Source of the DNA: a candidate division WOR-3 bacterium
GTDB taxonomy: Bacteria; Hydrothermota; UBA3073; JACQXS01; JAGMCI01
Direction: 5' to 3'
NCBI GenBank assembly: GCA_023129325.1
Contig: JAGMCI010000012.1
Coordinates: forward strand, 37,850 to 101,849
DNA: 64,000 nt
Part shown: positions 1-61,339 of the stretch, piece by piece
How the letters are laid out: every line of letters starts with the position of its first letter
How positions within the stretch are numbered: position 1 is the stretch's first letter
Made by a program: the position numbers and the translations under genes
Notes under the pieces: generated by a model
Seen by the model: the letters and a program-made list of their open reading frames with translations, nothing else
What the model was told of the DNA's origin: nothing
The model's database searches: none

Positions 1-1185
1 GACGAGGCTGAAATAAGGGGACATAGGAGGACTTATGTTGGTGCTTTGCCTGGCAGAATAATTCAAGGTATAAAGCGTGCTAATTCAAGAAATCCGGTTT
101 TTATGTTAGATGAGATTGATAAAATAGGGATGGATTTCAGGGGCGACCCGGCAGCTGCTTTACTTGAGGCACTTGACCCTGAACAAAACAAATATTTTTC
201 AGACCATTACTTAGATGTGGTGTTTGACCTTTCCAAAGTTATGTTTATAACTACAGCTAATGTAGTAGACCCAATTTTACCTGCTTTAAAGGACAGGATG
301 GAGATAATTAATCTTCCTGGTTATATTCTTGAAGAAAAGTTAAAGATAGCCAAAAACTTTTTAATTCCAAGACAGATAAAAGAGAATGGTTTGACCTCTG
401 AGCTTATCAGGTTCACGGATGGGGCTATTCGTGAGATTATTCAGGATTATACTCGTGAGGCTGGGGTAAGGAATGTTGAGCGTGAGATTGCTAATTGTGC
501 CAGGAAGGTTGCAAAAAGAATAGCGAAGAAAAGAAGTAAGAAGTTAGAAGTTAGAAGTGGGAAGTGGGAAATAACGAGGAATAGTGTATCAGAATTTCTT
601 GGACCTCCGAAGTTTTTTTCTGAAATAAGGGAGAAGGAAGGAGAAATCGGCGTAGCCACAGGTCTTGCTTACAGTCCTGATGGTGGAACGATTATATTTA
701 TTGAAGCAACAAAGATGAAGGGTAAGCATCAGCTTAATTTGACTGGGAAGTTAGGAGATATAATGAAAGAATCAGCTCAAGCTGGTCTTTCCTGGGTTCG
801 TTCAAAGGCAAGAAACTTAGGAATCAAGGAAGATTTTTTTGAGCATTATGACATTCACATTCATGTTCCAGAGGGTGCTATTCCAAAAGATGGCCCTTCA
901 GCAGGCATTGCCATAGTTACTGCTCTTGTCTCATTACTAAGGAACAAGAAAGTCAACGCAAGCATTGGTATGACAGGCGAGATTACATTGAGGGGCAAGA
1001 TTTTACCTGTAGGAGGGATAAGGGAGAAAGTAATAGCGGCAAAGCGAGCAGGGATTCAGACTATAATTTTACCTGACAAGAATCGCAAGGACCTCATTAA
1101 AATACCTTTCTATGTGAAGCGAGGGCTTAAATTCAAATTTGTAAAAGAGGTTGAAGAGGCTATAAATTTAGCAATAGAAGAATAA
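1..1185 (+). CDS. lon: ATP-dependent Lon protease, C-terminal part (5' end lies outside the window). An in-frame GGAAGT-type repeat at 536-570 adds [13 protein letters not shown].
   Basis: Frame 1 is open from nt 1. The translation contains ...[15 protein letters not shown]..., the P-loop-proximal region, and the catalytic-domain region DGPSAGIA...[19 protein letters not shown]. Confidence 0.9.
536..570 (+). repeat. GAAGTTAGAAGTTAGAAGTGGGAAGTGGGAA hexamer-type repeat, in-frame in lon.
   Basis: The same GGAAGTGGGAAG motif occurs at 3585-3610, 3661-3678 and 60584-60620. Each copy encodes a (G/R)KWEV(G) peptide. Confidence 0.7.
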
Positions 1186-1198
1186 AAAAGGTGAAATA

Positions 1199-1261
1199 CC
1201 TGCCTGCCCCACTCCGACAAGCGAAGCGGGACAGAGACGGCGAGGCAGGCAAGGTGGCAGG
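1199..1261 (+). repeat. GC-rich palindromic element, family A (51-bp core CCTGCCTGCCCCRCTCCGACAAGCGAAGCGGGACRGAGACGGCRAGGCAGG), intergenic copy.
   Basis: Near-identical copies at 3611-3661 (+), 12361-12411 (+) and 61216-61267 (-). GC content is far above the surrounding DNA. Confidence 0.85.
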
Positions 1262-1359: not shown

Positions 1360-2943
1360 ATGAAATGTTCTAAGTGTGGAAAAAATTTGCCAGAGGATGT
1401 TAAATATTGTGTTTATTGTGGTAAAGCCATACTTATGGAATGTCCGGGATGTGGCAAAACTATTCTAACTGATAGTGAGGTTTGTAAATTTTGTCAGCTT
1501 AATCTTACAGATTATAAAAAGGTCATCCAGCTCTTAAAATCCGGCAAGGAACTTGAATCCGCCTCAGGCGGATTCAAATATGAGGAAGCGAGAAAGATTT
1601 ATGAACGCGCTGCAAAATTAGGAGTAGCAAAAAATAAGGTATTTAAATTACTGAACGGAGCAACTCAAAAGCTCAGGATAATCAAAGCCAAGAAATTTGA
1701 TGCAGAGAATTTTTTAAGAGTCCGAAAATTAGGCTTAGCAAAAGAGTCTTTTCTTGAAGTTCAAAAACTGCTTCCCAAGGATGAGGAGATTGCTTTGAAA
1801 TTAGAACTTATTGAGTCCAGGATTAGAAGCAGGGCTATAAAAATAAGATGGGCAGTTATAATTATAATTCTTCTTGCAATAGGCGTGGGTTTTTATTCTT
1901 ATACAAATAGTCTCACATATTTAGCAAAGAGGGGACTTAAATCTCTTTTAAGAAGTGAAGAAACTGACATAAGACATTCAGCTATTTTGGTATTAGGTGA
2001 ACATGGTGAGCGAGCTGCCCGTCCATGGCTCGAAATGCTTGCAAATAGTGAGAATGAGCAAAAGAGAGTTTGTGCGCTCGTCAGTCTTTTAAACTTTGGC
2101 GAGACTGAAGCCTTACCTATTTTACTTGAAATAATGCGTAAAGGCAGTATTCAGGCAAGCATTGGAGCTGCGTGGGCTTTAGCGGCTACTATGGATAGAA
2201 CAATTGCTCCAGAGCTTGGTGTTTACTTGAAAGGGAAGAACGATGCCCTTAAAATATCATCTGCGACTATATTACTAAATCTTGGCTATTCCTCGGGCAT
2301 AGGGGTAATAGAAAAATCTTTAGAAAACAAAAAAACAGCAACACGATTTGAAGGATTATATGCTCTCTATTTACTTGGAAGCAAAGAAGCCCTTCAATTA
2401 TTTATACCCCAAGAGTCCGACTTACTCAGAAATTTACTTGAAGACCCAAATGACGAGATTAGGCTCCTTTCTGCACTTCTATTAAATCAATTTGAACCTA
2501 ACTTAGCTAAAGAAGACTCAGTTGCTATAGCACAGATATTATGGGGAGAATTTGCCAAGAGGGAGTATTCTGCAACGGAGATGGAAGAAATTTCTACCAC
2601 ACATCCATTTTATATTGCTAAAGAGATAATTAAAGACAAAGGTGATGAATCCATAATGGAATTCAGTCCTTCGGCAAGAGAAATAAGAAAAAGATGCATT
2701 GAGGATTTATCCAAAATTGAACTTGGAGACGAATCGGTCAGGAAAGAGCTTGAAAAATCATTAACTTCATCTGCCTCAGACGGAGATAAATATGAACGTC
2801 TTGAGGCAGCTTTGGTGTTATTCAAGTTTGACAAAAAAAGAGCTACCAGAGTTTTAAAAGAATTGATAAAGGATAAAGATGAACTCTTAAAATTAAACAC
2901 TTGTAAATTAACCCTTATGCTTAAGCAAATACTTCAAATATGA
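1360..2943 (+). CDS. Membrane protein with an N-terminal double zinc ribbon, one TM helix and C-terminal HEAT (PBS-lyase-like) repeats.
   Basis: Two CxxC pairs occur twice in the first 50 aa. Hydrophobic stretch WAVIIIILLAIGVGF. Repeated ...A(A/I)..LG..G...A.P.L...L.. HEAT-like units. RBS aggggg 8 nt upstream of the ATG. Confidence 0.6.
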   Translation: MKCSKCGKNLPEDVKYCVYCGKAILMECPGCGKTILTDSEVCKFCQLNLTDYKKVIQLLKSGKELESASGGFKYEEARKIYERAAKLGVAKNKVFKLLNGATQKLRIIKAKKFDAENFLRVRKLGLAKESFLEVQKLLPKDEEIALKLELIESRIRSRAIKIRWAVIIIILLAIGVGFYSYTNSLTYLAKRGLKSLLRSEETDIRHSAILVLGEHGERAARPWLEMLANSENEQKRVCALVSLLNFGETEALPILLEIMRKGSIQASIGAAWALAATMDRTIAPELGVYLKGKNDALKISSATILLNLGYSSGIGVIEKSLENKKTATRFEGLYALYLLGSKEALQLFIPQESDLLRNLLEDPNDEIRLLSALLLNQFEPNLAKEDSVAIAQILWGEFAKREYSATEMEEISTTHPFYIAKEIIKDKGDESIMEFSPSAREIRKRCIEDLSKIELGDESVRKELEKSLTSSASDGDKYERLEAALVLFKFDKKRATRVLKELIKDKDELLKLNTCKLTLMLKQILQI

Positions 2944-5900
2944 ATATGAAACAGGGTTTACTTAAACATCAACCGCACCTGCCCGACATCCTGCAGGCGG
3001 GGATGAACGCAGACACTAATTTAGACTACAGACTGAAGACTATAGACCAAAGACTGATAAAGAGAGGTCTTTTGTCTTTGGTCTTATGTCTCTATCCGTG
3101 GTTTTTAATGGCTCAAAACTTGCAAGTAAATCTATATTCAGGAAATTACAAGATTCAAGAACTGAAAGATAGTGAGCACCAGATACTTATGGAAAACCTG
3201 CCCGACGGTAAGGCGAGTGGGTTTGTGAACTCTTTAATTCCTGGCAAACCGATACTTCCAGCCAAAACATATATGATTGTTATACCACCAGGAGTAGAAA
3301 TTCAAAGAGTAGATATTCAGGGCAGGAAGGTTGAGCTACCAGGGAAATATAATATTAAACTATCTCCACCTATTTTCCCAATAATAAGTGGTGATGCAAT
3401 AGCAAGCTATTGCACTCCGGGAGTGCGTTATTTATATCCAAAAGAAGCAGGCAAATACATTGGAAGAGGTGGTTTAAGAAAATATGAGTTCATAAAAGTA
3501 GTTTTCTTTCCTTTTACCTATTGCCCCGAGACACGGAAATTATTTTATACCTCCACCATAACAGTATCTATAGATTATACTCCAGGAAGTGGAAAGTGGG
3601 AAGTGGGAAGCCTGCCTGCCCCGCTCCGACAAGCGAAGCGGGACGGAGACGGCAAGGCAGGTGGGAAGTGGGAGGATATTGCAAGGGATTTGCTTATAAA
3701 TTATAATGAAGCTCAAAAATGGTATAAACCTTTTGTTGAAGCAGAGGCTTCAACCTACCCTAATTATGATTATGTAATTATTACCACTCCTTTTTGCACT
3801 ACTGCTATTGACACTCTTATAAAATGGAAAAAAAGAATGGGTTATAAGACAAAAGTTGTTACCAAAGACTGGATAGATATCAGTTATCTTGGTAACGACA
3901 TACAACAGAAAATAAGGAATTTTTTGCGAGATAAATATCTTGATTGGGGGATAGAATATGTGCTTATAGTTGGTGATACTATAATCCCAATGCGAACATG
4001 CGTAACATTTAATAATGCACACGGTCCAGGAGGCTGGCCGCCTGGATGGTATACTATACCGACAGACTTATACTATGCAGAACTTACTTATCCTGATAGC
4101 TTATCGTGGAATCTTGACGGAGATAATTATTATGGTGAGGTATGGGAATGGGCAGGGGATACAATCATTCCTGAGGGTGATGATGCTCCTGATTATGTCA
4201 CAGATGTCAGACTTGGCAGGATTCCCTGGAGTGACCCGGCGAAAATCCGTCACATATGTGAAAAAATAGTTTCCTTTGAGCAAAATACAGACCCTTCTTA
4301 TAAAAAAGCCTCACTCCTTGCTGGAGGTATGATATTTTACGAAAACGAGGATAATTACTATCATAAATATGATGGTGCAGATATTATGGAAGCATTGATA
4401 GACAGTGGTATTGTAGAGCCATCGCTTGCTGTTACTTTGTATGAGAAAGCAGGTCTTAGACCAAGTTTATACCCATGCACAGCTCCTATTACAATGGATA
4501 ATATAATAAATTACTGGAATAATCGTGCCATCTTTTATGAATTTAACCATGGAGGAGTAGACAAATTTTTTAGTAGAATCTGGGCATCGGACGATGGCGA
4601 CAGTATTCCAGAATCAAGTGAAATAACAAGAAACTATTTACTATACTCCAGCTCTGCGCCACAACTTGATGATACTCATCCAGCAGTTGGATTCTTGATG
4701 TCATGCGATTGCGGGAAACCTGAGGATGGTAATAACCTTGGAGCTGCACTTTTAGAGAATGGGAGTGTAAGCATAGGAGCAGCAACACGGGCAGCATGGA
4801 CTTCTGGAGAGTGGATGGTATATTATTTTTTTAAAAACCTTTTAAGAGACACAAGCTTAACAGGTAGTAAAGTGGGAGATGCGTTTGATATGGCAAGAAT
4901 TGAATATATGCAACTTAACCCCTGGTGGCTTAATACCTATACTATCAATCTTTATGGTGAACCATCATTGAACCATTTTGGTATTACACTGAAACCTAAA
5001 CTTACAGTATTTCCTGATACACTCAATTTTGAAATCACTATGACAGAGAACAGGAAACAGAGAGCTGATTCAATATACTACCACTCAATCTACCAAGATT
5101 TAGATTGTTACTCCTACCAGTATGATAAAGCTAAAATTGCTACTCGTTTTACCCCTCTTCAAAATCCATGCTGGGTAACTGGGTGCGAAATATTTGTTAT
5201 GCCAAAAGATACAATGCCATCGATTCCAGATACTGTCTTTTTGTATGGTGCGGATAATGATACTACGCCTGGAGAAATTCTCTCCACCAAAACATGGAGC
5301 GCCCCAATTTATGCTCCTGATTTCTGGACAATAACCGTTTCTTTTGATTCCTCTTCCCTGCCCGACGGACGGCAGGCGGGTATGATAAGAAGTGGCGATT
5401 TCTGGATTGGATACAACAGTATCACTGATGGGATTAATAATATCTGTGTATGCTCTGATATGACAATTGATAGTAGTGGACAAAATAGAAATAGGTATAC
5501 CTTTGACGAGACCTGGGCTGGTATTGACTATGACTGGGGCATCACAGCATTTGTTGATTACAGAATACCTGAAGATACCGCCATATTGTGGATTAAAAAT
5601 GATGGAAATGATATTTTAAATGTCTCAAGCATTAATCCCGCACCATATGGTGCGGGACAAGACTGGGTTGTATCTATAACACCAATTTCATTCCAAGTAT
5701 CTAAAAAAGATTCTGAGGCAGTTACTGTAATTGTCAGTTCTAAAGGACTCGGCAAGGGTATCTATCATGACTCACTTAAGATTATCTCCAATGATTCTGA
5801 TAAAAATCCATATTATGAGCCTGTAAAGTTTGTAATTACTGATAGTCAAATTACACCCCCGCAGGTGTCTCAATTGCTTGATTCAATAATCCCAAACCCT

Positions 5901-6143
5901 ATTCAGCCTGGGAGCCAAATTATATATTGGCTTCCAAAATCAAGCTGGGTCACACTGAAAATCTATGACTCAATTGGCAGACTGGTGCGAGTTTTAATAG
6001 ATGAGTATGAACAAGTCGGACGGCATACTATTTCGTGGGATATGAGAAATTCATACGGCACCCGGCTCCCAAGCGGCGTTTATTTTTATAAATTAAAAAC
6101 ACTTAATAAAAGCTTAACAAAAAAACTTATTTTAATTCGTTAG
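2940..6143 (+). CDS. Peptidase C25 (gingipain-like cysteine protease) with propeptide domain and T9SS C-terminal sorting domain. It carries in-frame GC-rich repeat insertions. The true start is uncertain; the signal-like segment LLSLVLCLYPWFLMA lies ~40 aa in.
   Basis: Catalytic-domain region YDYVIITT...YVLIVGDTIIPMRTC. Paralogous to 53954-57532. C-terminus IYDSIGRLVRVLIDE...GVYFYKLKT is a Por_Secre_tail-type CTD. Repeat insertions lie at 2976-3003, 3585-3678, 3735-3760 and 5356-5380. Confidence 0.75.
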   Translation: MNMKQGLLKHQPHLPDILQAGMNADTNLDYRLKTIDQRLIKRGLLSLVLCLYPWFLMAQNLQVNLYSGNYKIQELKDSEHQILMENLPDGKASGFVNSLIPGKPILPAKTYMIVIPPGVEIQRVDIQGRKVELPGKYNIKLSPPIFPIISGDAIASYCTPGVRYLYPKEAGKYIGRGGLRKYEFIKVVFFPFTYCPETRKLFYTSTITVSIDYTPGSGKWEVGSLPAPLRQAKRDGDGKAGGKWEDIARDLLINYNEAQKWYKPFVEAEASTYPNYDYVIITTPFCTTAIDTLIKWKKRMGYKTKVVTKDWIDISYLGNDIQQKIRNFLRDKYLDWGIEYVLIVGDTIIPMRTCVTFNNAHGPGGWPPGWYTIPTDLYYAELTYPDSLSWNLDGDNYYGEVWEWAGDTIIPEGDDAPDYVTDVRLGRIPWSDPAKIRHICEKIVSFEQNTDPSYKKASLLAGGMIFYENEDNYYHKYDGADIMEALIDSGIVEPSLAVTLYEKAGLRPSLYPCTAPITMDNIINYWNNRAIFYEFNHGGVDKFFSRIWASDDGDSIPESSEITRNYLLYSSSAPQLDDTHPAVGFLMSCDCGKPEDGNNLGAALLENGSVSIGAATRAAWTSGEWMVYYFFKNLLRDTSLTGSKVGDAFDMARIEYMQLNPWWLNTYTINLYGEPSLNHFGITLKPKLTVFPDTLNFEITMTENRKQRADSIYYHSIYQDLDCYSYQYDKAKIATRFTPLQNPCWVTGCEIFVMPKDTMPSIPDTVFLYGADNDTTPGEILSTKTWSAPIYAPDFWTITVSFDSSSLPDGRQAGMIRSGDFWIGYNSITDGINNICVCSDMTIDSSGQNRNRYTFDETWAGIDYDWGITAFVDYRIPEDTAILWIKNDGNDILNVSSINPAPYGAGQDWVVSITPISFQVSKKDSEAVTVIVSSKGLGKGIYHDSLKIISNDSDKNPYYEPVKFVITDSQITPPQVSQLLDSIIPNPIQPGSQIIYWLPKSSWVTLKIYDSIGRLVRVLIDEYEQVGRHTISWDMRNSYGTRLPSGVYFYKLKTLNKSLTKKLILIR
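3585..3678 (+). repeat. Family A element inserted in-frame in the C25 peptidase, flanked by GTGGGAAGTGGGA direct repeats.
   Basis: …ggaagtggaaagtgggaagtgggaag-[51-bp element]-gtgggaagtgggagg… The reading frame is kept open and encodes SGKWEVGSLPAPLRQAKRDGDGKAGGKWE. Confidence 0.85.
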
Positions 6144-6155
6144 TTAACGAGCCCT

Positions 6156-7412
6156 TTGATGAAAAGAAACATAGAAAGACACGCCTGCCTGACGGCAAGG
6201 CAGGGATATAGGCACGGAAAGATACACCCGCCTGCCCGCTTCGCCTGCCTCGCCCACGAGTCAAGGCGGGCCAAAGCTTCAGCGAGGCGAGCCATCTGTC
6301 GGGTAGGGAAATTTAATTCCTATCTTATTTTCTGGTCCATACGGATATTGGGAGTAATATTTTTAATCTTTCCTATCCGGATTTATGGAAATGAAAAACC
6401 CGATACTTCTTTATGGCACAAGTACGAAATTTTACCTAAAAAGGGATTGTTCAAAATAAAGAGAGAGTATTCATTTCCACTTCACGATATTCTTGGCAAG
6501 GAAAAAATTTATGCCCGATGCATTGCAGCTGCACCAATAGGAGGATTAAGAGAAGAAATTCAAATTTCACTTGTGAAAATCCCTTTAAAGAAAAAGATTA
6601 TCTTCCCTCTTGCTTTTGAAGAACTTCCTATTTCTGAATTGCAAAGAGAAAAGGAGCTTGAAATTTCAAAATCCGTAATTGAGGAGCAACAAGAACTCCC
6701 AAAACCAATAAAAATTGAAATTACACCGTTGGAAATAGAGAGACCTATAATTGCAGAAATCTCTCCACCAGCGAAAATAGAAACCAAGAAGATAAAAATA
6801 ACTGCTATTAAAGCCCTTGGAGTAATCAAAGAAGAAAGCTCAATTCCCCTTTTGAGAGAAGCTTTAAAAGAAAAAGAATGGAGTATAAAGCGTGAGGCTG
6901 CCGGGGCTTTAGCAGAACTTGGCGATACGATAGGACTTTCTTTTCTCAGGACAGCTCTTGAAGAGAAAGAAACAGCCAAGAAACTTGAAATCATAAGTAC
7001 TCTTGGAAGGATAGGAGATATTGCTTCAGTTCCGTTTTTAAGAAAATTGTTAGACCATAAGGAGTGGGCAGTAAGACGGGAAGCGGCTTTTGCCCTCTCG
7101 AAAATAGGAGACAAGACTGGTCTTTCATTCTTGCAAAGAGCAGTTGGTTCAGAAGACTCTAACAAAAAGATTGAGGCGGCGATGGCATTGGCAGAAATAG
7201 GAGATGACACTGGACTCCCGGAATTAATCTGTCAACTGACAGACAAGGATAGTCATACATCTGTGAGAATCGCGGCTCTTAAATCCATTGGAAAAGTAGG
7301 AAAAAAGAATATCATTCCTGTATTAAATGAGATAATGAAAAAAGACCCTGAACTCATAGTTAGAATTATAGCTTCAGAAAGTATATTAAAGATTAATAAA
7401 AGGAGGAAATAA
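6156..7412 (+). CDS. HEAT-repeat membrane protein, paralogue of the two flanking genes but without a zinc ribbon. The annotated 5' ~150 nt are a GC-rich repeat element, so the start is uncertain.
   Basis: TM-like ILGVIFLIFPI. C-terminal ~200 aa are tandem HEAT units (ALGVIKEESSIPLLREALKEKEWSIKREAAGALAELGD...). The first 50 codons translate the repeat element at 6183-6309. Confidence 0.55.
   Translation: MMKRNIERHACLTARQGYRHGKIHPPARFACLAHESRRAKASARRAICRVGKFNSYLIFWSIRILGVIFLIFPIRIYGNEKPDTSLWHKYEILPKKGLFKIKREYSFPLHDILGKEKIYARCIAAAPIGGLREEIQISLVKIPLKKKIIFPLAFEELPISELQREKELEISKSVIEEQQELPKPIKIEITPLEIERPIIAEISPPAKIETKKIKITAIKALGVIKEESSIPLLREALKEKEWSIKREAAGALAELGDTIGLSFLRTALEEKETAKKLEIISTLGRIGDIASVPFLRKLLDHKEWAVRREAAFALSKIGDKTGLSFLQRAVGSEDSNKKIEAAMALAEIGDDTGLPELICQLTDKDSHTSVRIAALKSIGKVGKKNIIPVLNEIMKKDPELIVRIIASESILKINKRRK
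6183..6309 (+). repeat. GC-rich element, family B, long form ~125 bp.
   Basis: The reverse complement of its 3' half matches 8214-8270 almost exactly (CCCTRCCCGACWGATGGCTCGCCTCGCTGAAGCTTTGGC…GGCGGG). A partial relative lies at 37544-37614. Confidence 0.8.
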
Positions 7413-8212
7413 TGAAATGTCCTTATTGTAAACACGAGATAGCCAATGATTGGTTATATTGTGGCAATTGTGGCATAAATATTAAAAAAGAAAATCAAGC
7501 AAAAAAAATCATCCAGTCGGGACTTGAATTTGAACATCAATTTGAGTATACAAAAGCTTCAAACGAATACAAAAAAGCACTTGAACTCGGTGTCCCTGAC
7601 AAAGAGATTCTTGAACTTCTTGAAAAAGTCACAAGGAAAGAACAAGCTATTATAAATTGGATGGAAAAAGGGAAGGAGTTCTTATCAAGTCGTGAATGGA
7701 AAGAAGCAATCCGAGCTTACGAAAATGTATTGAAACTAAAGCCCGTGGATGGTTATGTTAAAACAAATTTATTGCTTGCCAAAAGAAACCTTGCCCGTTC
7801 ACATAAACGTATCGGGATACGGATAACAGTTATTGTGATAATTATAGGTATAGGAACCTTTGGCTGGTATAGTTATACGCAAACTCCAAAACAAGTTGCT
7901 CAAAAGACATTGAAGCAAGGAGTTTTATCTCAAGACCTTCTTGCCAAACAATACGCAATTGAAGCTCTGGGCGGACTCAAGGACAAAAGATTTTTCCCTC
8001 TTTTGAAAGATGCTTTAAAGGATAAAAATCCTGCCATAAGAACTACTACAGCTAAAGCTCTTGGAGAATTTGGTGATTCTGCAGCTATTCCATTTTTAAA
8101 GGAGAGTTTATTTGATAAAGAATGGCAGGTAAGATATGCGGCAGCTCAGTCTTTGGCATTAATGGGGGACACTTCTGGAATCCAACTTTTAAAACAGGCA
8201 TTGAAAAGGTAA
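7412..8212 (+). CDS. Zinc-ribbon/TPR-like/TM/HEAT-repeat membrane protein.
   Basis: MKCPYCKHEI...YCGNCG zinc ribbon. TM segment ITVIVIIIGIGTFGWYSYT. Three HEAT units. The segment following its TM matches that of 1360-2943 (FYSYTNS / WYSYTQT), indicating paralogy. Confidence 0.6.
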   Translation: MKCPYCKHEIANDWLYCGNCGINIKKENQAKKIIQSGLEFEHQFEYTKASNEYKKALELGVPDKEILELLEKVTRKEQAIINWMEKGKEFLSSREWKEAIRAYENVLKLKPVDGYVKTNLLLAKRNLARSHKRIGIRITVIVIIIGIGTFGWYSYTQTPKQVAQKTLKQGVLSQDLLAKQYAIEALGGLKDKRFFPLLKDALKDKNPAIRTTTAKALGEFGDSAAIPFLKESLFDKEWQVRYAAAQSLALMGDTSGIQLLKQALKR

Positions 8213-8213
8213 T

Positions 8214-8270
8214 CCCTGCCCGACTGATGGCTCGCCTCGCTGAAGCTTTGGCGAAGCGGGCAGGCGGGCG
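8214..8270 (-). repeat. Family B element, short form, inverted relative to 6183-6309.
   Basis: Direct sequence comparison. Lies immediately after the stop of gene 7412-8212. Confidence 0.8.
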
Positions 8271-8298
8271 TCAGCTCATAGAGTCTGTAACTGACGGA

Positions 8299-8685
8299 TT
8301 AGATTTCTTCAAGTTCTCCTGGAGCACCAAAAAGAGATTCAATTTTTAAAGTGATAATCCTTCCCGTCCCCGTTTCTTCAAAGTTAATTCCAATCTCTTT
8401 CAAAAATTTCATTACCTCTTTGCCTGTATCCAGATTCTCGGTCACAGTCAGAACTGTCTTTGAATAGGCTCTTCCTTTTAAATCAAACCTTAAACCTGCA
8501 AATATTGGTACCTTATAAGCAAGTGCCTTCTCCATTGACTCAGAATCAATTGTAATTGCATCTTCTATCCCAAGTTCAACAAGACAGGAAAGGACATCAT
8601 CCAAATATTCCTCCTTATGCAAGATTATAATAAGTAAATACATAAGTCCCCCTATACAATTGTAAAATGCAAAAATTCTAAACAA
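8299..8685 (-). CDS. Small P-II-like (DUF190/nitrogen-regulatory-PII-fold-like) protein. An alternative start at 8643 is possible.
   Basis: ~110-aa core with an alternating beta/alpha pattern resembling P-II (LDDVLSCLVELGIEDAITIDSES...GRIITLKIESL). Lies last in the operon after the antiporter and the EIIA-like gene. Confidence 0.35.
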   Translation of the reverse strand: MFRIFAFYNCIGGLMYLLIIILHKEEYLDDVLSCLVELGIEDAITIDSESMEKALAYKVPIFAGLRFDLKGRAYSKTVLTVTENLDTGKEVMKFLKEIGINFEETGTGRIITLKIESLFGAPGELEEI

Positions 8686-8843
8686 ATATTAAATTCAAAA
8701 TCCCAATGCTCCAAATAGGAGTAATAACAGTTTGAAATTTGGAGAATTGGGATTTGTTTAGTCCTGAATTTAATTCAGGATCGGATTTAGGAATTAGGAT
8801 TTTAATTTTTAATTTGTCATTTTGCATTTTAATTTTTGAATTT

Positions 8844-9356
8844 TTATTTCTTGTATATCACTCTTCCTTCCTTAGTTTCTACCTCTATTTTTTCAGGGAC
8901 CACACCGTCAAAATCCATAACAAGTCGCATCACATCTTCTGATGATTTAGCTTTAAGTAATGCCTCCTTTAATACCTTTGATTTTAAGAACCTTGCGACT
9001 TTTGCTACAGCTTGTAAATACTCTTTGCGTGCCTCAATTGGGGCAGCAATCATAAAAATTAAGTGAACTGACTTCTTATCAAGAGCCTTAAAATCAACAC
9101 CTTCCTCTGACTTTCCGAAAGCTACTTTAAGCTCCTTTGCCGTATCAGACCTCCCGTGAGGAATGGCAATACCACTCCCAATAGCCGTTGACTCTATTTC
9201 TTCCCTTTTCTTAATGACCTGAAGGAATTTATCTTTATCAGTCACAATCCCCTTGTTCACAAATAATTCTACAAGCCCCTCAATAACTGCAAACTTATCT
9301 TTAGAGACAAGATTGCAATTTATGAGCTTCTCATCTATTAGTTCTTGTAATAACAT
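8844..9356 (-). CDS. ptsN: PTS EIIA type-2 (PtsN / nitrogen-regulatory IIA-like) domain protein.
   Basis: Active-site histidine motif GIAIPHGR and the overall EIIA(Fru/Ntr) layout. RBS aaggagg precedes the start. Confidence 0.7.
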   Translation of the reverse strand: MLLQELIDEKLINCNLVSKDKFAVIEGLVELFVNKGIVTDKDKFLQVIKKREEIESTAIGSGIAIPHGRSDTAKELKVAFGKSEEGVDFKALDKKSVHLIFMIAAPIEARKEYLQAVAKVARFLKSKVLKEALLKAKSSEDVMRLVMDFDGVVPEKIEVETKEGRVIYKK

Positions 9357-10606: not shown

Positions 10607-12135
10607 CTCAGTCGTATCCTTTCCTTCTCAATTCTCTTTATTTCTTTAACTGGGATTTGGGTTGGATAATTACCCGTGAAACAGGCAGTGCAATAAGAAT
10701 TTTTTGCACTTCTGACTTCTGTATCACCAACAGCCCTTAACATACCTTCAAGAGATTGATAAATGAGTTCATCAACCCCAATTTGTGCCTTTATTTCAGA
10801 AATGCTCTTTTCTCGGGCTATAAAGTCTTGCTTCGTTTGCATATCAATCCCATAGAAACAAGGATATTTAAGGGGTGGACAGGATGAAATAAAATATATC
10901 TTCTTGGCACCCGCCTTCCTCACTAAAGATGTGATGGCTTTGGATGTGGTGCCACGAACAATAGAATCGTCTACTAATAATACCTTCTTTCCCTGTATTT
11001 CTTGTTTTACAGGATTAAGTTTGTACCTTACATATTCTAATCTCCTTTCGTCCCTTGGCATTATAAAAGTCCTGGCTACATACCTATTTTTTATAAGGCC
11101 CTCCCTGTAAGGAACACCAAGAGTATTGGCTAAAGATAAAGCAGTTGCCCTGGCTGTATCTGGCACAGGAATTACAACATCCGGTTTAAGACCAGACTTT
11201 TTTATCTTCTTAGCAAGCTCTTCGCCAAGTCTTAATCTGGTCTCATATACAGATACATTGTCAAGAACAGAATCAGGCCTTGCAAAATAAATATATTCAA
11301 AAATGCAATGCCTTGGACTCGGTGGCTTAATAACTTTTGAAATGACTTTCCCTTTAAGGTCTATAAGTATTGCCTCACCTGGATTTACATCCCTGATTTC
11401 ATCATAGCCAAGAGTGTCAAGAGCAACTGATTCAGATGCAAAACAAAAATTATTAAATTTGGACCCCTCAGCTGGGTAGGTTGAAAGGGACCCCCCAGTT
11501 GGGTAGGTTGAAGCCTCTGCTTCAACCTTGCATCCAAATTTTAAAGGCTTTATACCATGAGGGTCTCTAAAAGCAAGAAGTCCAATATTGGCAATGAAAG
11601 AGATGCAGGAATAACTTCCAGTTACTCTTTCCATCACTCTTTTAACAGCTTCAAAAACAGGTTTTTCCCCACCTATGGATGGAGCCCACATATTGGTCTC
11701 AAGTTCAGAAGCGAGAACATTTAAGATAATCTCAACATCACTTTTCGTATTTATGTGGCGATGTCGCTTATTCACAAGCCATTTCCTTAAACTCTCATAA
11801 TTTATGACATTCCCATTATGAGCTATGGCTATGCCAAAAGGAGTATTTGTATAAAAAGGTTGCGCATCCTCAGGGTCCCCAGCTCCAATTGTCGGATACC
11901 GAACATGACCAATCCCGATTGAACCCTTAAGTCGAGTCAGGTCTTGCGGATTAAAAAGGCTCTGGACAGTCCCTTTGCCTTTTTTTAAATAAAATCTACC
12001 ATCCTTATTCGCAGAATGCTGTGCATAAGTTATAATTCCAGCCGCATCCTGCCCCCTATGCTGTATAGCAATCAGCCCAAGCCAGAGCTTGGAAGCTACA
12101 TCACGCTCGCCAAATATCCCAATAACACCACACAT
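10603..12135 (-). CDS. purF: Amidophosphoribosyltransferase (glutamine PRPP amidotransferase). It contains an in-frame repeat insertion at 11470-11527.
   Basis: N-terminal MCGVIGIFG (Ntn cysteine). PRTase motif VLLVDDSIVRGTT. A C-terminal CxxC cluster is present. The inserted segment KVEAEASTYPTGGSLSTYPAEGS is encoded by a duplicated repeat element. Confidence 0.9.
   Translation of the reverse strand: MCGVIGIFGERDVASKLWLGLIAIQHRGQDAAGIITYAQHSANKDGRFYLKKGKGTVQSLFNPQDLTRLKGSIGIGHVRYPTIGAGDPEDAQPFYTNTPFGIAIAHNGNVINYESLRKWLVNKRHRHINTKSDVEIILNVLASELETNMWAPSIGGEKPVFEAVKRVMERVTGSYSCISFIANIGLLAFRDPHGIKPLKFGCKVEAEASTYPTGGSLSTYPAEGSKFNNFCFASESVALDTLGYDEIRDVNPGEAILIDLKGKVISKVIKPPSPRHCIFEYIYFARPDSVLDNVSVYETRLRLGEELAKKIKKSGLKPDVVIPVPDTARATALSLANTLGVPYREGLIKNRYVARTFIMPRDERRLEYVRYKLNPVKQEIQGKKVLLVDDSIVRGTTSKAITSLVRKAGAKKIYFISSCPPLKYPCFYGIDMQTKQDFIAREKSISEIKAQIGVDELIYQSLEGMLRAVGDTEVRSAKNSYCTACFTGNYPTQIPVKEIKRIEKERIRLS
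11470..11527 (-). repeat. Family G hairpin element (GGGTAGGTTGAAGCCTCTGCTTCAAC), duplicated and in-frame in purF.
   Basis: Perfect 8-bp stem GTTGAAGC/GCTTCAAC. Other copies at 3735-3760 (in C25, encodes EAEASTYP) and 37713-37738 (intergenic). Confidence 0.8.
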
Positions 12136-12360
12136 ATCAATTAAAATTTTACACTTCTTTTACCTGTTGTCAAGTTTTTTAGTATTTAAAGTTCAAAAAT
12201 ATGGAAAGTAACGATTGTATCGTTGTTTGCTTCGTTTTTTACTCCAAAGATTGCAGACTTTAGGATAAGGCTTTAGCCTTGCTAATGGATTGCTCAGTTT
12301 TGCTAATTAACCAATTAACTAATTCACCAATCAACTATTTTAACCCTCTGTGCCCTCCCT

Positions 12361-12411
12361 CCCTGCCTGCCCCGCTCCGATAAGCGAAGCGGGACGGAGA
12401 CGGCAAGGCAG
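12361..12411 (+). repeat. Family A element, intergenic, in the divergent purF / DUF218 promoter region.
   Basis: Same 51-bp consensus. Confidence 0.85.
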
Positions 12412-12464
12412 GTGTGGTTGTTTTTCTTGACTTTTAGGAGTTGATGATGTAAATTACTAAAATA

Positions 12465-13112
12465 ATGATACGCACTCATCGCACAGGAATAGTTAAGGGA
12501 TTTTTGCTCTGCCTTTTATCTATTATAATAATTCTTGCTGCCCTTTCCTGCATTTACTTTTTCCATATCTATTCATTCCTCTCATATGAAAAGATATTTA
12601 AAACAGATACCGTCGTTGTTGAGGGCTGGATAAGTAATTCTGAGATGAGACAATCAGCAAATAATATACTCTCTAATAATGTGAAAAGAGTAATAGTGCC
12701 CGGTGATAAAGCTGAATTAGCCCTAATACATTATCCAGTAAATAATTATGCTGATATAGGACGTTTGCGTCTAATTGATTGTGGGGTAAATGAAGAAAAA
12801 ATTATTACTTGCCCCTTTGAAACCAAACGGAATCGTACATTAAACGCTGCTGTATATGTGAAAAAAATAATTCAAAAAAAGGGTATAAAGTCATTTATTA
12901 TTTTCACCGAGGATGTGCATGCCAGAAAAACTTATGTCTCATATAAAAAGGTATTTGGGAACAAATATAAAATTGGTGTTATGCCCATACCTAACGATGT
13001 ATTTGATAATAAAAATTGGTATAAATCAAGTGAAGGGATGAAAACAGTAATTACTGAATCAATTGCATATATATATTTAGTTTGCTTCCAGAGATTTAAG
13101 CACTGGGAATGA
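12465..13112 (+). CDS. DUF218 (SanA/YdcF/ElyC-like) membrane-anchored protein.
   Basis: N-terminal TM. The core resembles SanA (…KSFIIFTEDVHARKTY vs SanA …DFIIITQRFHCERAL). Own promoter TTGACT-17-TAAATT at 12427-12455. Confidence 0.55.
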   Translation: MIRTHRTGIVKGFLLCLLSIIIILAALSCIYFFHIYSFLSYEKIFKTDTVVVEGWISNSEMRQSANNILSNNVKRVIVPGDKAELALIHYPVNNYADIGRLRLIDCGVNEEKIITCPFETKRNRTLNAAVYVKKIIQKKGIKSFIIFTEDVHARKTYVSYKKVFGNKYKIGVMPIPNDVFDNKNWYKSSEGMKTVITESIAYIYLVCFQRFKHWE

Positions 13113-16266: not shown

Positions 16267-16315
16267 ACTAATCATTTTAAAATGCTAATTGCTAATTTTA
16301 AATTGAATCTTTAAT

Positions 16316-19436: not shown

Positions 19437-20822
19437 ATGCTTGAAGAAAAGATAAAGACAAAGCAAGCCAAAGTTTGCATAATTGGACTTGGTTATGTGG
19501 GGCTTCCACTGGCAATCCATTTTGCCAAAAATGGATTTAAAGTTTTGGGACTTGATATTAAAAAAGAACGAGTAAATCTTGTGAATCAGGGTAAAAGTTA
19601 TATTGAAGATGCATCAGAATTAGAGCTCAAAAAACTTGTAACCTCAAAGAGACTGAGTGCTACCTGGGACTATGCTAAAATCCCTGAATACGATGTAATC
19701 CAGATATGCGTTCCAACACCTGTAGATATTAATAAAGAACCCAATATTTCTTATTTAGTTGCTACTGCTGATGAAATTCAAAAAAGACTTCGTAAAGAAC
19801 AACTTATTATATTAAAAAGCACCAGTTTTCCAGAAACTACAGAAAATGTTCTCCTCCCAATACTTGAAAAATCAAGACTTTGTGCCAGAGGCACATCCCG
19901 ATTTGCATCGGGAAAAGTTGGTAAAGACTTTTATCTTGCTTTTTCACCTGAGAGAATAGACCCCGGGAACAAAAGGTTTACTACAGAAAATACTCCAACA
20001 GTTGTGGGAGGCATAACTCCGAAATGCACTAAACTTGCTACTCTTCTTTACAAGAGTGTTATAGATAAAGTGATTTCCGTTTCTTCCGCACGGGTGGCTG
20101 AAATGACAAAACTTCTTGAAAATACTTTTAGAAATGTAAACATAGCACTTGTAAATGAATTAGCTCAGTTATGTGAACGTATGAATATAAATATTTGGGA
20201 AGTAATAGATGCGGCGAAAACAAAACCATTTGGATTTATGCCATTTTATCCAGGACCAGGAGTTGGAGGACATTGTATTCCTATAGACCCTTATTATCTC
20301 TCCTGGAAAGCGCGTGAATATGATTTCCATACTTCATTTATAGAGCTATCTGCAAAAGTAAACGAATCAATGCCTTACTATGTGGCAAATAAAGTAATTG
20401 AAGCATTAAGCACGCAAGGGGTATGTCCATCAGCAGGAAAGATACTTATTTTAGGTGTCACATTTAAGCCTGATGTCAGAGACATTCGGGATTCACCTAT
20501 ATTAAAACTAATAAAAATTCTTGAACCACGCGTAAAAGAAATAATATATAATGACCCTTATATAAAAGAAATAGAAGTCCCTACAGGGACTGTCCCTCTG
20601 ACTTTAAAGGGACTGTCCCTATATAAGTCTAAGACATTAACTCAAAAACTATTAAAAAGCGTAGATTGCGTTATCATAGCCACCAACCACAAAGCCTATG
20701 ATTATCCCTGGCTTGTCCAGAACGCAAGTCTTATAGTAGACACCCGTAATGGCACAAAAGGCATTCCTGCCCGACGCCTCACGGGCGGGAAAGGAGGTAA
20801 TATAATAAGGCTTGGCTGTTAG
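19437..20822 (+). CDS. Nucleotide-sugar dehydrogenase (UDP-N-acetyl-D-mannosamine / UDP-glucose 6-dehydrogenase family). It has in-frame palindromic insertions at 20576-20620 and a GC-rich element at 20766-20789 in the C-terminus.
   Basis: IGLGYVGLP Rossmann motif. Catalytic region GFMPFYPGPGVGGHCIPID. C-terminal IPARRLTGGKGG is encoded by the GC-rich element. Confidence 0.8.
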   Translation: MLEEKIKTKQAKVCIIGLGYVGLPLAIHFAKNGFKVLGLDIKKERVNLVNQGKSYIEDASELELKKLVTSKRLSATWDYAKIPEYDVIQICVPTPVDINKEPNISYLVATADEIQKRLRKEQLIILKSTSFPETTENVLLPILEKSRLCARGTSRFASGKVGKDFYLAFSPERIDPGNKRFTTENTPTVVGGITPKCTKLATLLYKSVIDKVISVSSARVAEMTKLLENTFRNVNIALVNELAQLCERMNINIWEVIDAAKTKPFGFMPFYPGPGVGGHCIPIDPYYLSWKAREYDFHTSFIELSAKVNESMPYYVANKVIEALSTQGVCPSAGKILILGVTFKPDVRDIRDSPILKLIKILEPRVKEIIYNDPYIKEIEVPTGTVPLTLKGLSLYKSKTLTQKLLKSVDCVIIATNHKAYDYPWLVQNASLIVDTRNGTKGIPARRLTGGKGGNIIRLGC

Positions 20823-29497: not shown

Positions 29498-29645
29498 AAA
29501 ATAGCACACATCACTTCGTCGGAGCTTCAGCGAGGCGAAGATTTGCACAAATTGATAAGGATAAACACAGATTATTAAAAAATGGAAGGGAAATCTTTGA
29601 AAAACAATCAGAAGAATCTGCGTTAATCTGCGTCAAAAAAACCAT

Positions 29646-30881
29646 ATGAAGATACTCTTCTTTTTATCTCTTGGAATTTTGTTATATGTATATTTTGGTT
29701 ATCCCTTACTTCTGCTTATTCTTTCTAAAATAAAGAAACCGCACAACCGCAGCACTGCACAACTGCAATCTTTCCCTTCAGTTTCCCTTATCATACCTGC
29801 TTACAACGAGGAAGAAATAATAGAGGAAAAAATTAAAAATAGTTTCTCACTTGACTACCCCGGAAAAGTTGAGATAATCCTTTCTTCTGATGGTTCAACA
29901 GACAAAACAGTAGAGATTACTTCAAAATTCAAGAAAGTAAAAATAAACGATTTTAAAGAAAGAAAAGGGAAAATGGCAACATTAAATAGGACGCTTCGTG
30001 GCAGCTATGAAGGAACGAAAGCACCAACAGGTGAAATTATTATTTTCACTGATGCAAATGCTATGTTTGAAAAAGATGCTTTAAAAAACCTCATCCGTAA
30101 TTTTGCCGATAAAAGCATTGGCTGTGTGTGCGGGGCAAAACGAATAAAGAAAGAGAACCTCCCTGCCCGCCGCTCCGCTTTGGCAGGCGGGTGCTCTCAT
30201 TTGGTAGGCGGGTGTGAAAAAACTTACTGGAAAATGGAGAACTTCTTAAAAGAAAAGGAAAGTGAAATTGGTTCCTGCATTGCAGATGGCTCAATATATG
30301 CTTTGAGGAAAGAACTTTACCCTTTTCCAAGAGAGGATAAAATTATTATGGATGATTTTGCTATCTCTCTGGGAATAATAAATAAAAATTACAGAGTTGT
30401 TTTTGAGCCTAAGGCAGTGGCATATGAGAGTGCATCTTTAAACACTTTTGCTGAATTTAAAAGAAAGGTGCGAATCCTGGAGGGAGCACTTGCGACAATA
30501 CTTTCTTGTCCAATAAAGCGAGTTGGTTTCCAAATTGTATCCCACAAAATATTACGCTGGCTTGGAGGTATATTTATGATTACCCTGTTAATTTCAAACC
30601 TGTTTATTGCCTGCCCGACATCTGGTAGGCGGGAAAGTATCTCCTATCAAGTATTTTTGATGGTGCAAATGTGTTTTTATTTATTCGCATTAGTTGGTTT
30701 TGGAGCAACTGCTATAACTGTAGCCATCCCGATTTCATCGGGACGGAAACACAAAATATTCTCTCTGTTTTATTCGCCATTTTATTTTTGCTTGACAAAT
30801 TTAGCTCAAGTGATAGGATTTCTTAAATATATAGTAGGAAGTAAACAACCATTTTGGGAAAGAGCAGAAAGAATCCGTTAG
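29646..30881 (+). CDS. Membrane glycosyltransferase family 2. It carries two in-frame GC-rich element insertions.
   Basis: SLIIPAYNEEEII...SSDGSTD GT2 motifs and C-terminal TM helices. Inserts at 30160-30213 (PARRSALAGGCSHLVGGC) and 30610-30633 (ACPTSGRRES). Confidence 0.65.
   Translation: MKILFFLSLGILLYVYFGYPLLLLILSKIKKPHNRSTAQLQSFPSVSLIIPAYNEEEIIEEKIKNSFSLDYPGKVEIILSSDGSTDKTVEITSKFKKVKINDFKERKGKMATLNRTLRGSYEGTKAPTGEIIIFTDANAMFEKDALKNLIRNFADKSIGCVCGAKRIKKENLPARRSALAGGCSHLVGGCEKTYWKMENFLKEKESEIGSCIADGSIYALRKELYPFPREDKIIMDDFAISLGIINKNYRVVFEPKAVAYESASLNTFAEFKRKVRILEGALATILSCPIKRVGFQIVSHKILRWLGGIFMITLLISNLFIACPTSGRRESISYQVFLMVQMCFYLFALVGFGATAITVAIPISSGRKHKIFSLFYSPFYFCLTNLAQVIGFLKYIVGSKQPFWERAERIR
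30160..30213 (+). repeat. GC-rich short element, family E (CCTGCCCG…GGCAGGCGGG / TTGGTAGGCGGG), in-frame in the GT2 gene.
   Basis: Related short copies at 2976-3003, 5356-5380, 20766-20789 and 30610-30633. All share CCTGCCCGAC-N(8-10)-AGGCGGG. Confidence 0.75.
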
Positions 30882-33821: not shown

Positions 33822-33965
33822 TGATGGTGATTCGTATAAATTCATGGTTTGATTTAACCACAGATGAACGCAGATAGACACAGATATTTTTGTTTTAATT
33901 CGTGGTTATAATTTTTGCATTTTAATATGTATTTTTAATTTTTGATATTTGATTTTTAATTTGAT

Positions 33966-37035: not shown

Positions 37036-37683
37036 ATGAAAAACTATTTTGTTCATCCAACTGCTGTTGTTGAAAAAGGAGCTAAAATAGGTAAAGAAAC
37101 AAAAATTTGGCACTTCTCACACATAATGAAAGGAGCAAAAATTGGTAAAAATTGTTTGCTTGGTCAAAATTGCTTCGTTGCTAAAGATGCAATTCTTGGA
37201 AATGGGGTAAAGCTTGAAAACAATGTCTCTGTCTATACATTTGTGACCCTCGAAGATGATGTATTTGTTGGACCTTCAGCTGTATTTACAAATGATTTAA
37301 ACCCAAGAGCCCCTTATCCAAAAGGAGGAAAATGGATTGCTACTTATGTGCAAAAAGGAGTATCAATTGGAGCAAATGCGACCATTGTTTGTGGTATCAA
37401 TATAGGTAAATGGGCTTTCATAGGTGCTGGAGCAGTCGTGACAAAAAATATTCCTGATTATGCTATAGTTGCTGGTGTTCCCGCAAGAGTCATAGGCTGG
37501 ATGTGCGAATGTGGACAAAAACTTAAATTTAAGCCCTCCCGCCAGATGGCCCGCTTCGCCCTGTCTCGCCGAGCCAAGGCGGGCGGAGCTTCAGCAAAGC
37601 GAACAGGCGGGGAGGAAAAGGCAACTTGTCAAAAGTGCGGCAGAAAATACCATAAAGAAGGTCTTAAATGTAGTCTTATTTAA
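37036..37683 (+). CDS. Hexapeptide-repeat N-acetyltransferase (WbpD/PglD-like). Its C-terminal zinc ribbon is interrupted by a GC-rich element.
   Basis: Left-handed beta-helix hexapeptide repeats ([13 protein letters not shown]...). C-terminus reads CECG…[27 aa encoded by element 37544-37614]…CQKCG. Confidence 0.75.
37544..37614 (+). repeat. GC-rich element related to families B and C, inside the C-terminus of the acetyltransferase.
   Basis: CCCGCTTCGCC…CTGTCTCGCCGAGCCAAGGCGGGCGG…GCTTCAGC. Shares blocks with 6183-6309 and 40644-40674. Confidence 0.7.
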
Positions 37684-37995: not shown

Positions 37996-38427
37996 TTAGT
38001 CTGCCTTAGGAGAAATTTTATCTGAGAACTTTTGCTCTGCAATTAAGAATGCCTCTTTAACATTCTTCCAGCGAGCACAGTAAGGGGATGAACTATACTT
38101 TCCTTTGGAATTAATTAATGCGTGGGTGGGTTCCTTTCCATACTCGTTATAAAGACGAATTAAGTCTAATAATAATTCATCATCCTTTATCAATTCTTTC
38201 TCACGAATCATATCTGCAGGGTTGATAGGTATCAAACCAGCTTCTTTGACTGCATTATTCCATAAGCCAAAATGATACCTCGCTGTACCTAAAGAAATCT
38301 TTGAATGCTTATTAAAATCTTTACTCTTTAGTGATTTTACACCCAGAGCGGATGCAATTCTTCTGATTTCTTCAATTATTTGCTGTTTTGTAACTCCGTA
38401 TATGCGAACTTGAGTTTGACTACGCAT
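37996..38427 (-). CDS. Hypothetical protein with two homing-endonuclease-associated-like repeats (…YHFGLWNNAVKEAGL / …YCARWKNVKEAF).
   Basis: 143-aa ORF on the opposite strand to its neighbours, bracketed by ~30-bp direct repeats at 37799-37829 and 38641-38690. A terminator-like hairpin (GGGCAAACCTTTAGGTTTGC) lies at 37962-37984, downstream of its stop. Confidence 0.4.
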   Translation of the reverse strand: MRSQTQVRIYGVTKQQIIEEIRRIASALGVKSLKSKDFNKHSKISLGTARYHFGLWNNAVKEAGLIPINPADMIREKELIKDDELLLDLIRLYNEYGKEPTHALINSKGKYSSSPYCARWKNVKEAFLIAEQKFSDKISPKAD

Positions 38428-38727
38428 CCCTGTGTCTGAAAAAATTCCTATTATACTTCTTATTTTACCATATCCTTTACATTTGTCAAGTATTTTTAGT
38501 CTAATTTATTATACTAATATAAACCGCAGATACATCACAGAATATCAAAATGCAAAATAGTCGGATAGATTATTGGTTTAATCTAATAAACTAACAAACC
38601 AGCAAACTGAACATCTTTTTGCATTAGCATTCTGTGTATCTGTGTTCCCCGTTTGCCAAAGCCTTGTGCGGCGGGCAGGTCTGCGGTTCTTATTCGTGTA
38701 ATTTGTGTAATTCGTGGTTGATTTTTC

Positions 38728-51642: not shown

Positions 51643-51734
51643 TGCAAAATATAAAATTAGCAATGCAAAATTAACAATTCTTTGTTTAAGCCAACAAGTT
51701 TATACTTCATTTTGAATTGCTAATTGCTAATTTT

Positions 51735-61267: not shown

Positions 61268-61339
61268 GAAATAGTTAAACTTAGGTGCAGGGTGAGGATA
61301 AAAGAAGCTGGTGCCTCCGGCTTTAAATTGCCCAAACAT

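Follow-up and report, generated by a model that had tools for sequence, protein, structure and literature searches.

A 64,000-nt stretch (the window) of contig JAGMCI010000012.1, from a metagenome-assembled genome (MAG) of a candidate division WOR-3 bacterium, carries two inverted copies of a short GC-rich repeat of family B, B1 and B2, which surround HEAT2 and HEAT3, the last two genes of a three-gene block encoding HEAT-repeat proteins (Table 1). With a probability of roughly 75%, B1 and B2 each arose by an insertion of its own, in which a small palindromic repeat, GC-rich and non-autonomous, entered a tolerant site in an old HEAT operon of conserved synteny. The original prediction from this DNA had suggested that the element disrupted or replaced the 5′ end of HEAT2, with loss of a zinc ribbon, and that the gene pair may have been mobilized or recombined by its flanking repeats; both readings are refuted, as related genomes free of the repeats have an equally zinc-ribbon-less middle gene and an identical gene order and orientation. 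The HEAT genes form an ordinary conserved operon that was neither moved nor truncated by the repeats. The analysis covered 82 kb of the 374,764-bp scaffold, and coordinates are those of the window, with negative values upstream of it.

The inverted-copy observation itself is confirmed: positions 6224-6309 and 8213-8271 are reverse complements over 59 nt with 3 mismatches, and an inverted-repeat search of the window resolves them into two arm pairs, 6270-6309/8213-8252 (40 nt, 95% complementary) and 6224-6245/8250-8271 (22 nt, 95% complementary). A 27-mer of the B1/B2 pair occurs exactly twice in the window vs 0 times in 100 shuffles, and in the alignment B1 equals B2 plus a 27-nt insert at 6244-6270. 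Both ends of a 1983-nt Logan contig from an independent assembly (L002) fall within B1 and B2, which indicates that the repeat is real and repeated often enough to break the assembly graph. The copies do bracket the two genes (6159-7412 and 7412-8212), and the right copy does lie directly 3′ of the second one, as B2 begins 1 nt past its TAA, and the end of B2 is 28 nt away from the stop of the convergent gene 8299-8643. The left copy had been placed just 5′ of its gene, but B1 actually lies within the annotated HEAT2 open reading frame (ORF), at codons 24-50 counting from ATG 6159. The 125-bp element reported at 6183-6309 is not a single unit, being made up of a 24-nt hairpin (6183-6206), a 17-nt AT-rich spacer and an 81-86-nt B copy.

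Family B is a composite, in which a 24-nt outer hairpin, CCTGCCCGAC…GGCAGGCGGG, encloses a 30-nt core, CCCGCTTCGCC-NN-AGCTTCAGCGAGGCGAG, and in some copies another hairpin sits within the core at NN. B2 has the 54-nt layout CCTGCCCGAC-TGAT-GGCTCGCCTCGCTGAAGCTTTGGCGAAGCG-GGCAGGCGGG, that is, a small unit with the 30-nt core in its loop (core at 8229-8260, minus strand, by nhmmer), and B1 combines the outer 24-nt hairpin (CCTACCCGAC…GGCAGGCGGG, minus strand) with a 30-32-nt core and the nested 27-nt hairpin. Every component of B1 occurs separately elsewhere in the 82 kb: its 27-mer also stands alone ~4.5 kb upstream of the window, within a DUF3108 gene, and a bare third core is found at 65323-65354 (+) in a convergent spacer. 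The hairpin at 6184 likewise has a second copy, CCTGCCTGACGGCAAGGCAGGG, ~3.7 kb upstream of the window, within a GGDEF-EAL gene. The small units are 24, 27 or 30 nt long with the common ends CCTG(C/T)C…GGCGGG (for example CCTGCCCGACGGACGGCAGGCGGG at 5357), which were found in all inspected copies, and the module lengths in the window (24, 27, 30, 51, 54 and 81) all differ by multiples of three. Besides B1, nested composites occur at 37530-37620, about -1868 and about -2208, the nesting positions being 37560, about -1816 and about -2195. A second family, A, has CCCGCTTCGC in common with family B, and its ends CCTGCC/GGCAGG are likewise common to B. The terminal inverted repeat of the B element comprises only 6 nt and is imperfect (CCTGCC/CCCGCC), and no direct repeats indicative of a target-site duplication flank B1, B2, the third core or 31 copies from Patescibacteria. 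The family A copy at 3611 is flanked by a direct repeat of 13 nt, which was rejected as a target-site duplication, since it is really a split (GGGAAGT)n tract. Strand-specific folding, suspected from G·T wobble vs C·A mismatch, was also discarded, as RNA and DNA energies of 17 modules favor neither strand consistently.

The ancestral state of the operon can be read from its relatives. HEAT2 has its closest homologues in P0002 (382 aa, 52% identity) and P0003 (355 aa, 40%, from Stahlbacteria), both of which align from window residue ~52 (signal segment ~52-75), start with M(FNV)KY followed by the hydrophobic signal segment and an EKPDTSLW motif, and have no zinc ribbon. Their loci harbor no hairpin modules and no B core, the sole GC-rich islands being two inside the HEAT1 gene of L003, and no modules were found in four related loci (48 kb in total). 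HEAT2 indeed lacks the zinc ribbon of its two paralogues, as had been noted and as Pfam agrees, and since the middle gene of the element-free relatives lacks it too, this is the ancestral condition. In both relatives (L003 and L004), the gene order is Lon, double-zinc-ribbon HEAT, HEAT and zinc-ribbon-TPR-HEAT, with the HEAT genes contiguous and on the same strand, tblastn supports one-to-one orthology for Lon, HEAT1, HEAT2 and HEAT3, and L003 also keeps the downstream neighbor context (an EIIA-domain gene). The pair 6159-8212 hence occupies its ancestral position and orientation, with the repeats as additions around it. Further downstream, L003 has a periplasmic-binding-protein gene (12048-12860) 2.4 kb from the HEAT operon, the window orthologue of which (62413-63273, 68% identical) lies 54 kb away on the other strand, indicating that a large rearrangement downstream of the operon separates the lineages.

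The HEAT2 reading frame runs through the element. From ATG 6159 the ORF is open across both the 24-nt hairpin (codons 9-16) and the 81-nt B1 (codons 24-50), 105 nt or 35 codons in total, and the same frame then covers the hydrophobic segment and HEAT2's conserved mature portion. The NCBI annotation uses this start, and the same 417-aa product is on record (P0001). The claim that the 5′ copy supplies the annotated N-terminus therefore holds for codons 24-50, with codons 9-16 contributed by the separate hairpin. An intact start 3′ of the element, which had been named as a finding that would speak against this arrangement, does not exist: downstream, TTG 6345 is the sole canonical start in frame, and its use would cost the protein most of the hydrophobic segment. 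After manual removal of the inserts, HEAT2 reads MKRNIERHDRHGKIQKFNSYLIFW…, a plausible charged region before the hydrophobic segment. As judged from the reading frame, the inserts are most likely translated as a ~35-residue Arg/Ala-rich cytoplasmic N-terminal extension.

B1 and B2 belong to a much larger population of repeats. The window has 36% GC and contains ~20 short GC-rich islands, and across the 82 kb there are ~30 GC-rich modules, each 24-30 nt long or a composite of such units, all of which fold as hairpins. About 17 of them fall in the 17 kb from -4.6 kb to +12.4 kb that surround the HEAT operon, and only two in the last 20 kb examined (L125), so that the modules are clustered. Roughly half are located within genes, although coding sequence makes up ~92% of the region, which fits purifying selection against most coding insertions; the proposed fallback that these elements prefer gene boundaries is thus only half right. 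The hosts of intragenic modules are ORFs with Pfam-supported domains, and the modules are in frame, with all three forward frames represented (as read from the module listing). Of the 14 asymmetric intragenic modules, 12 have the sense orientation, two of these being in minus-strand genes, and both exceptions are parts of nested composites. The C25 peptidase gene (2940-6143) alone carries four in-frame modules (2978-3001, 3197-3221, the family A copy 3611-3661, and 5357-5380), and 11 C25 homologues have an 8-residue gap where the window has the 3197 module.

For family B, nhmmer detects three intact cores, one truncated and two degenerate ones and a 14-nt fragment in the 82 kb, in both orientations. 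The copies outside the pair (65323-65354, 29514-29538 and the degenerate copies at 37530-37620 and about -1860) have no link to HEAT genes and again occur in both orientations, which is the kind of distribution that the original prediction itself had named as telling against a tie to the HEAT module. The chance of a B-core neighbor within 2 kb is estimated at roughly 0.15-0.25 per copy, and given this density in a locally module-dense HEAT neighborhood the bracketing is probably not meaningful, that is, the enclosure of the gene pair by B1 and B2 would probably be coincidental.

The core extends far beyond this genome. A scan of genome contigs for an 18-mer of the core matched at least 119 stretches. 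About two thirds of the listed matches are from high-GC genomes and lack the core context; many of those inspected in context encode the peptide motif PRFSEASLVKELE, which we take to be topoisomerase I, and all high-GC matches were treated as unrelated coding matches rather than true cores. In ~30 low-GC genomes among the matches listed, the 18-mer is always within the same 30-32-nt core, CCCGCTTCGCC-NN-AGCTTCAGCGAGGCGAGCC, which is often wrapped by CCCGCCTGCC…GGCGAGGCAGG. The hosts among these listed matches include Daviesbacteria, Moranbacteria, Woesebacteria, Gottesmanbacteria, Yanofskybacteria, Giovannonibacteria, Saccharibacteria and other Patescibacteria, as well as an Elusimicrobia MAG and low-GC MAGs labeled Gammaproteobacteria. 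In at least 16 low-GC loci the core is inside ORFs of 228-824 aa, with five of the six frames used (the sixth contains TGA), and in Patescibacteria ORFs it is in sense orientation in ~13 of 18 cases. By comparison with solved structures, a patescibacterial UvrB has an insert of exactly 10 residues (30 nt), and a Daviesbacteria Lon has a ~16-residue insert in the linker between the lid and protease domains.

The modular construction recurs in these lineages as well. A metagenome scan for cores split at NN yielded 10 unrelated contigs, five of which have a hairpin of 21-30 nt at NN that differs between them. In the remaining contigs the cores are in tandem and recur every 30 nt, which sets the unit length at 30. 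Head-to-tail arrays of the 30-nt core are also present in some Patescibacteria (L087 3774-3844, L131 2819-2910, L138 3510-3600 and L119 3116-3219), and at least one of them, the L119 array, is inside a 476-aa ORF, where it encodes repeated ARRA-rich decapeptides. Saccharibacteria cores near TTCGAATCC-like sequence were considered as tRNA or transfer-messenger RNA (tmRNA) insertions and rejected, since ARAGORN and Rfam place the cores beside tRNAs. In another patescibacterial locus (L016 3043-3283), Rfam identifies a group I intron with tRNA-like GC islands on either side, ~1.7 kb from a core copy; this is probably an intron-containing tRNA gene. A literature search on the core sequence, on elements like the Rickettsia palindromic elements (RPEs) in the Candidate Phyla Radiation and on GC-rich palindromes in Patescibacteria returned no relevant paper, and a cross-phylum family of nested mini-hairpins is seemingly undescribed.

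The repeats work like RPEs and repetitive extragenic palindromic (REP) elements and recall the GC clusters of yeast mitochondria, and they belong to none of these groups. RPEs, reportedly described by Ogata et al. in 2000, are dispersed palindromes of an AT-rich genome that lie between genes and in frame at permissive sites within genes and have no transposase of their own. The same in-frame residence is seen here for the C25 insert, for HEAT2 codons 9-16 and 24-50, and for UvrB and Lon. However, RPEs are ~100-150 bp long and confined to Rickettsia, whereas the present units are 24-81 nt, modular, nested and strongly GC-rich, with a core that crosses phyla; with size and host different, no Pfam RPE match on the HEAT2 product and no Rfam match, they are set apart from RPEs without a nucleotide comparison to RPE sequences. 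REP, REPIN and BIME elements are imperfect GC-rich palindromes of 20-40 nt that occur in high copy, without target-site duplications, clustered or nested, and often between convergent genes; the ~30 short palindromes in 82 kb compare well with this. In contrast to the modules described here, about half of which are inside ORFs, REPs are essentially extragenic, and they have a 5′ GTAG/GTGG tetranucleotide, where the present ends are CCTG(C/T)C and GGCGGG. REPs are also species-specific with their own REP-associated transposase (RAYT, a Y1 HUH enzyme), and no RAYT gene was found within the 82 kb examined.

Yeast mitochondrial GC clusters are short GC-rich palindromic mobile elements of a very AT-rich genome, which are occasionally tolerated in coding sequence and have nested or composite forms, but they are organellar, eukaryotic, unrelated in sequence and accompanied by flanking target motifs not seen here. 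MITEs (miniature inverted-repeat transposable elements) such as Correia/NEMIS of Neisseria are similarly small and non-autonomous, with terminal inverted repeats, and can be co-transcribed with or fused to neighboring genes; however, their clear terminal inverted repeats and target-site duplications, which result from DDE transposition, differ from the 6-nt imperfect repeat without duplication in family B. A composite transposon or invertible cassette would be expected at a new or variable position or orientation, whereas gene order and orientation are identical in L003 and L004, which lack the repeats, and at 8213-8271 no GC-rich hairpin followed by a T-run, as an intrinsic terminator would have, is predicted.

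As independent insertions, B1 would have entered the charged region that precedes the signal/anchor segment of HEAT2, and B2 the short spacer after the last HEAT gene. The 24-nt and 81-nt inserts keep the frame of ATG 6159 and most likely add residues to the protein as RPEs do. The units are probably selfish and may be mobilized in trans by an enzyme with single-stranded hairpins as its substrate, similar to HUH or REP-associated transposases. Such a single-strand mechanism is suggested by the absence of target-site duplications, the insertion into hairpin loops and the sense-orientation bias, in all of which the repeats resemble HUH or single-strand transposition (REP-RAYT, IS200/IS605).

Several observations weigh against independent insertion of selfish units. 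It is unusual for selfish repeats to share a 30-nt core so nearly unchanged between phyla, and this could be a sign of a function. The 82 kb examined yielded no gene for a transposase, HUH enzyme or recombinase, which leaves the mobilization step without a candidate enzyme, and ATG 6159 has no Shine-Dalgarno support. The multiples-of-three pattern is not universal, as nested inserts of 22 and 25 nt occur in other genomes, and the folds of B1 and B2 are not more stable than those of shuffled GC-rich sequence (z = -1.1 to -1.6). Furthermore, no close relative is present in the databases searched, where the best matches of HEAT2 and C25 have 52% and 49% identity, respectively; the empty sites are hence evident at the level of protein and synteny only, not of nucleotides.

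The strongest alternative is that the hairpins are functional cis-acting structures kept by selection, such as mRNA-stabilizing or processing hairpins, attenuators or protein-binding sites, which we consider unlikely. The near-invariance of the core across phyla would fit this, as would the sense bias (12 of 14 asymmetric genic modules here and ~13 of 18 patescibacterial ORF cores), and both B2 and the third core are in convergent intergenic spacers. REP elements are known to be co-opted for functional roles, and the modules might have been co-opted likewise. On this view, B2 would form the 3′ end of the transcripts of one convergent gene or of both, and B1 would modulate HEAT2 translation. 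Against this, no intrinsic terminator or T-run is predicted at 8213-8271 on either strand, and the terminator-like sites that were predicted, 6184-6204 (-) and 6301-6325 (+), are within chance expectation. Rfam gave no real match (whole window at gathering thresholds; 6100-8400 at E <= 10), returning only chance-level miRNA and snoRNA matches. A selected structure also sits poorly with fold stabilities of B1 and B2 that do not exceed those of shuffles, and with the lack of a consistent energy difference between the strands. The hosts are unrelated proteins (Lon, UvrB, C25, GT2, OEP) without a common regulatory logic, and the modules are absent at the orthologous loci of relatives.

That the inverted copies are instead the ends of a composite or recombination cassette, which moved, or is able to invert, the HEAT pair and destroyed a zinc-ribbon N-terminus at its left end, is very improbable. 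Two 95%-identical inverted copies, 1.9 kb apart, do bracket exactly two genes, and the middle gene does stand without a zinc ribbon between two paralogues that have one, but in the element-free relatives the order and orientation of the three genes are no different, and the middle one is equally devoid of a zinc ribbon. The EIIA-domain neighbor downstream is kept in L003, B cores elsewhere are unrelated to HEAT genes, and the reading frame is intact across the insert. Finally, assembly or binning artefacts, i.e., chimeric joins via a k-mer shared between genomes, might account for an identical 30-nt core in very different organisms of similar environments and for contigs that break at repeats, but their probability is negligible. 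Contig names like k141 imply assembly k-mers longer than the elements, so that contigs could span them only on the basis of real reads, and the ENA, NCBI and Logan assemblies, made independently, agree with each other. The loci also stem from many studies and assemblers, and the inserts preserve frames and occupy permissive loops of Lon and UvrB.

Table 1. Genes and repeat modules discussed in the text, with positions in the window.
Feature	Position	Strand	Basis or remark
Lon (partial)	46-1185		Pfam
Family A copy, 51 nt, one of four	1199-1249	+	
Family A copy	3611-3661	+	Inside C25
Family A copy	12362-12412	+	
Family A copy	61217-61267	-	
HEAT1: double zinc ribbon, transmembrane segment, HEAT repeats	1360-2943	+	Pfam; first gene of the conserved three-gene block
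C25 peptidase with type IX secretion system (T9SS) sorting domain	2940-6143	+	Pfam
HEAT2: HEAT repeats, N-terminal signal/anchor segment, no zinc ribbon	6159-7412	+	Pfam, orthologues
Separate 24-nt GC-rich hairpin GCCTGCCTGACGGCAAGGCAGGGA	6183-6206	+	Encodes HEAT2 residues 9-16 (ACLTARQG)
B1, long copy of family B, 81 nt	6227-6307	-	Homology to B2 extends over 6224-6309; encodes HEAT2 residues 24-50
27-nt hairpin CCTGCCTCGCCCACGAGTCAAGGCGGG	6244-6270	+	Nested at the variable NN of the B1 core; absent from B2 and the third core
HEAT3: zinc ribbon, TPR, transmembrane segment, HEAT repeats	7412-8212	+	Pfam; start overlaps HEAT2 stop (ATGA)
B2, short copy of family B	8213-8271	+	54-nt module at 8215-8268; in the 86-nt spacer between 7412-8212 and 8299-8643, which are convergent
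Convergent hypothetical gene, 114 aa	8299-8643	-	Gene call; stop 28 nt from B2
Truncated B core CTTCGTCGGAGCTTCAGCGAGGCGA	29514-29538	+	Radical-SAM/GT2 gene spacer; nhmmer E = 7e-7
Degenerate B-like composite	37530-37620	+	3′ part of hexapeptide-transferase ORF; 24-nt hairpin 37560-37583 nested in the core where B1 also has its nested unit
Hairpin module of 24-30 nt, sense, inside a gene	20766-20789	+	
Hairpin module, likewise	30162-30191		
Hairpin module, likewise	30610-30633		
Hairpin module, likewise	40646-40669		
Hairpin module, likewise	58727-58756		

Some further features of the region deserve mention. The C25 gene lies between HEAT1 and HEAT2 in the window, its start overlapping the HEAT1 stop (ATGA), whereas HEAT1 and HEAT2 are adjacent in the two related genomes, which makes the C25 gene the new, lineage-specific arrival; its closest homologues in other genomes are not within HEAT operons. 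GC hairpins are present at both ends of the C25 gene (2978 and 6183). Tandem heptamer tracts, (GGGAAGT)n or (GAAGTTA)n, form a second class of intragenic repeat that is unrelated to the GC-rich modules; they are found in coding regions at 538-578, 3584-3610, 3662-3675 and 60577-60617, in the lid-protease linker of Lon, in C25 and in a T9SS protein, where they are read as GKWEVGS-like peptides, and one such tract was the insertion site of the family A copy at 3611. AT-rich repeats with a period of ~7 nt (TAATTGC-TAATTGC-TAATTTT, ATTTTNN) are located in spacers at 8785-8852, 16272-16299, 33886-33962, 40361-40410, 51698-51760 and 1307-1340, in part as inverted pairs (e.g., 8663-8704/8790-8831). 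An ORF at 37996-38427 (-), flanked by the modules 37530-37620 and 38647-38690, encodes 143 aa with two homing endonuclease associated repeat domains (HNH_repeat, PF18780) and no nuclease domain; it was considered as a partner of the modules and rejected, having no homologue in more than 130 other loci examined. The ORF called mechanically at 61151-62413 from a GTG start crosses the family A copy 61217-61267, and its true start is more likely ATG 61341, 3′ of the element, an example of how the repeats can inflate ORF calls.

On a wider and more tentative reading, the core and its companion hairpins could constitute a cross-phylum system of 24-30-nt modules, present in WOR-3, many Patescibacteria phyla and Elusimicrobia, which enter each other's loops and also, with the frame kept, essential genes such as those for Lon and UvrB, oriented according to transcription and leaving no target duplication. 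If true, this would imply an undescribed trans-acting insertion machinery that operates on single-stranded DNA or at the RNA level, or one that is shared horizontally, and no smaller class of mobile element that coding sequence tolerates would be known. In practical terms, the repeats cause annotation artefacts in the form of odd Arg/Ala/Pro-rich segments, misplaced starts and contig breaks. They may also serve as a marker of horizontal exchange between co-habiting lineages, and they offer a tractable case for how very small palindromes spread without target duplications, with a 30-nt core that is kept across distant, mostly uncultivated low-GC lineages, in frame within housekeeping proteins.

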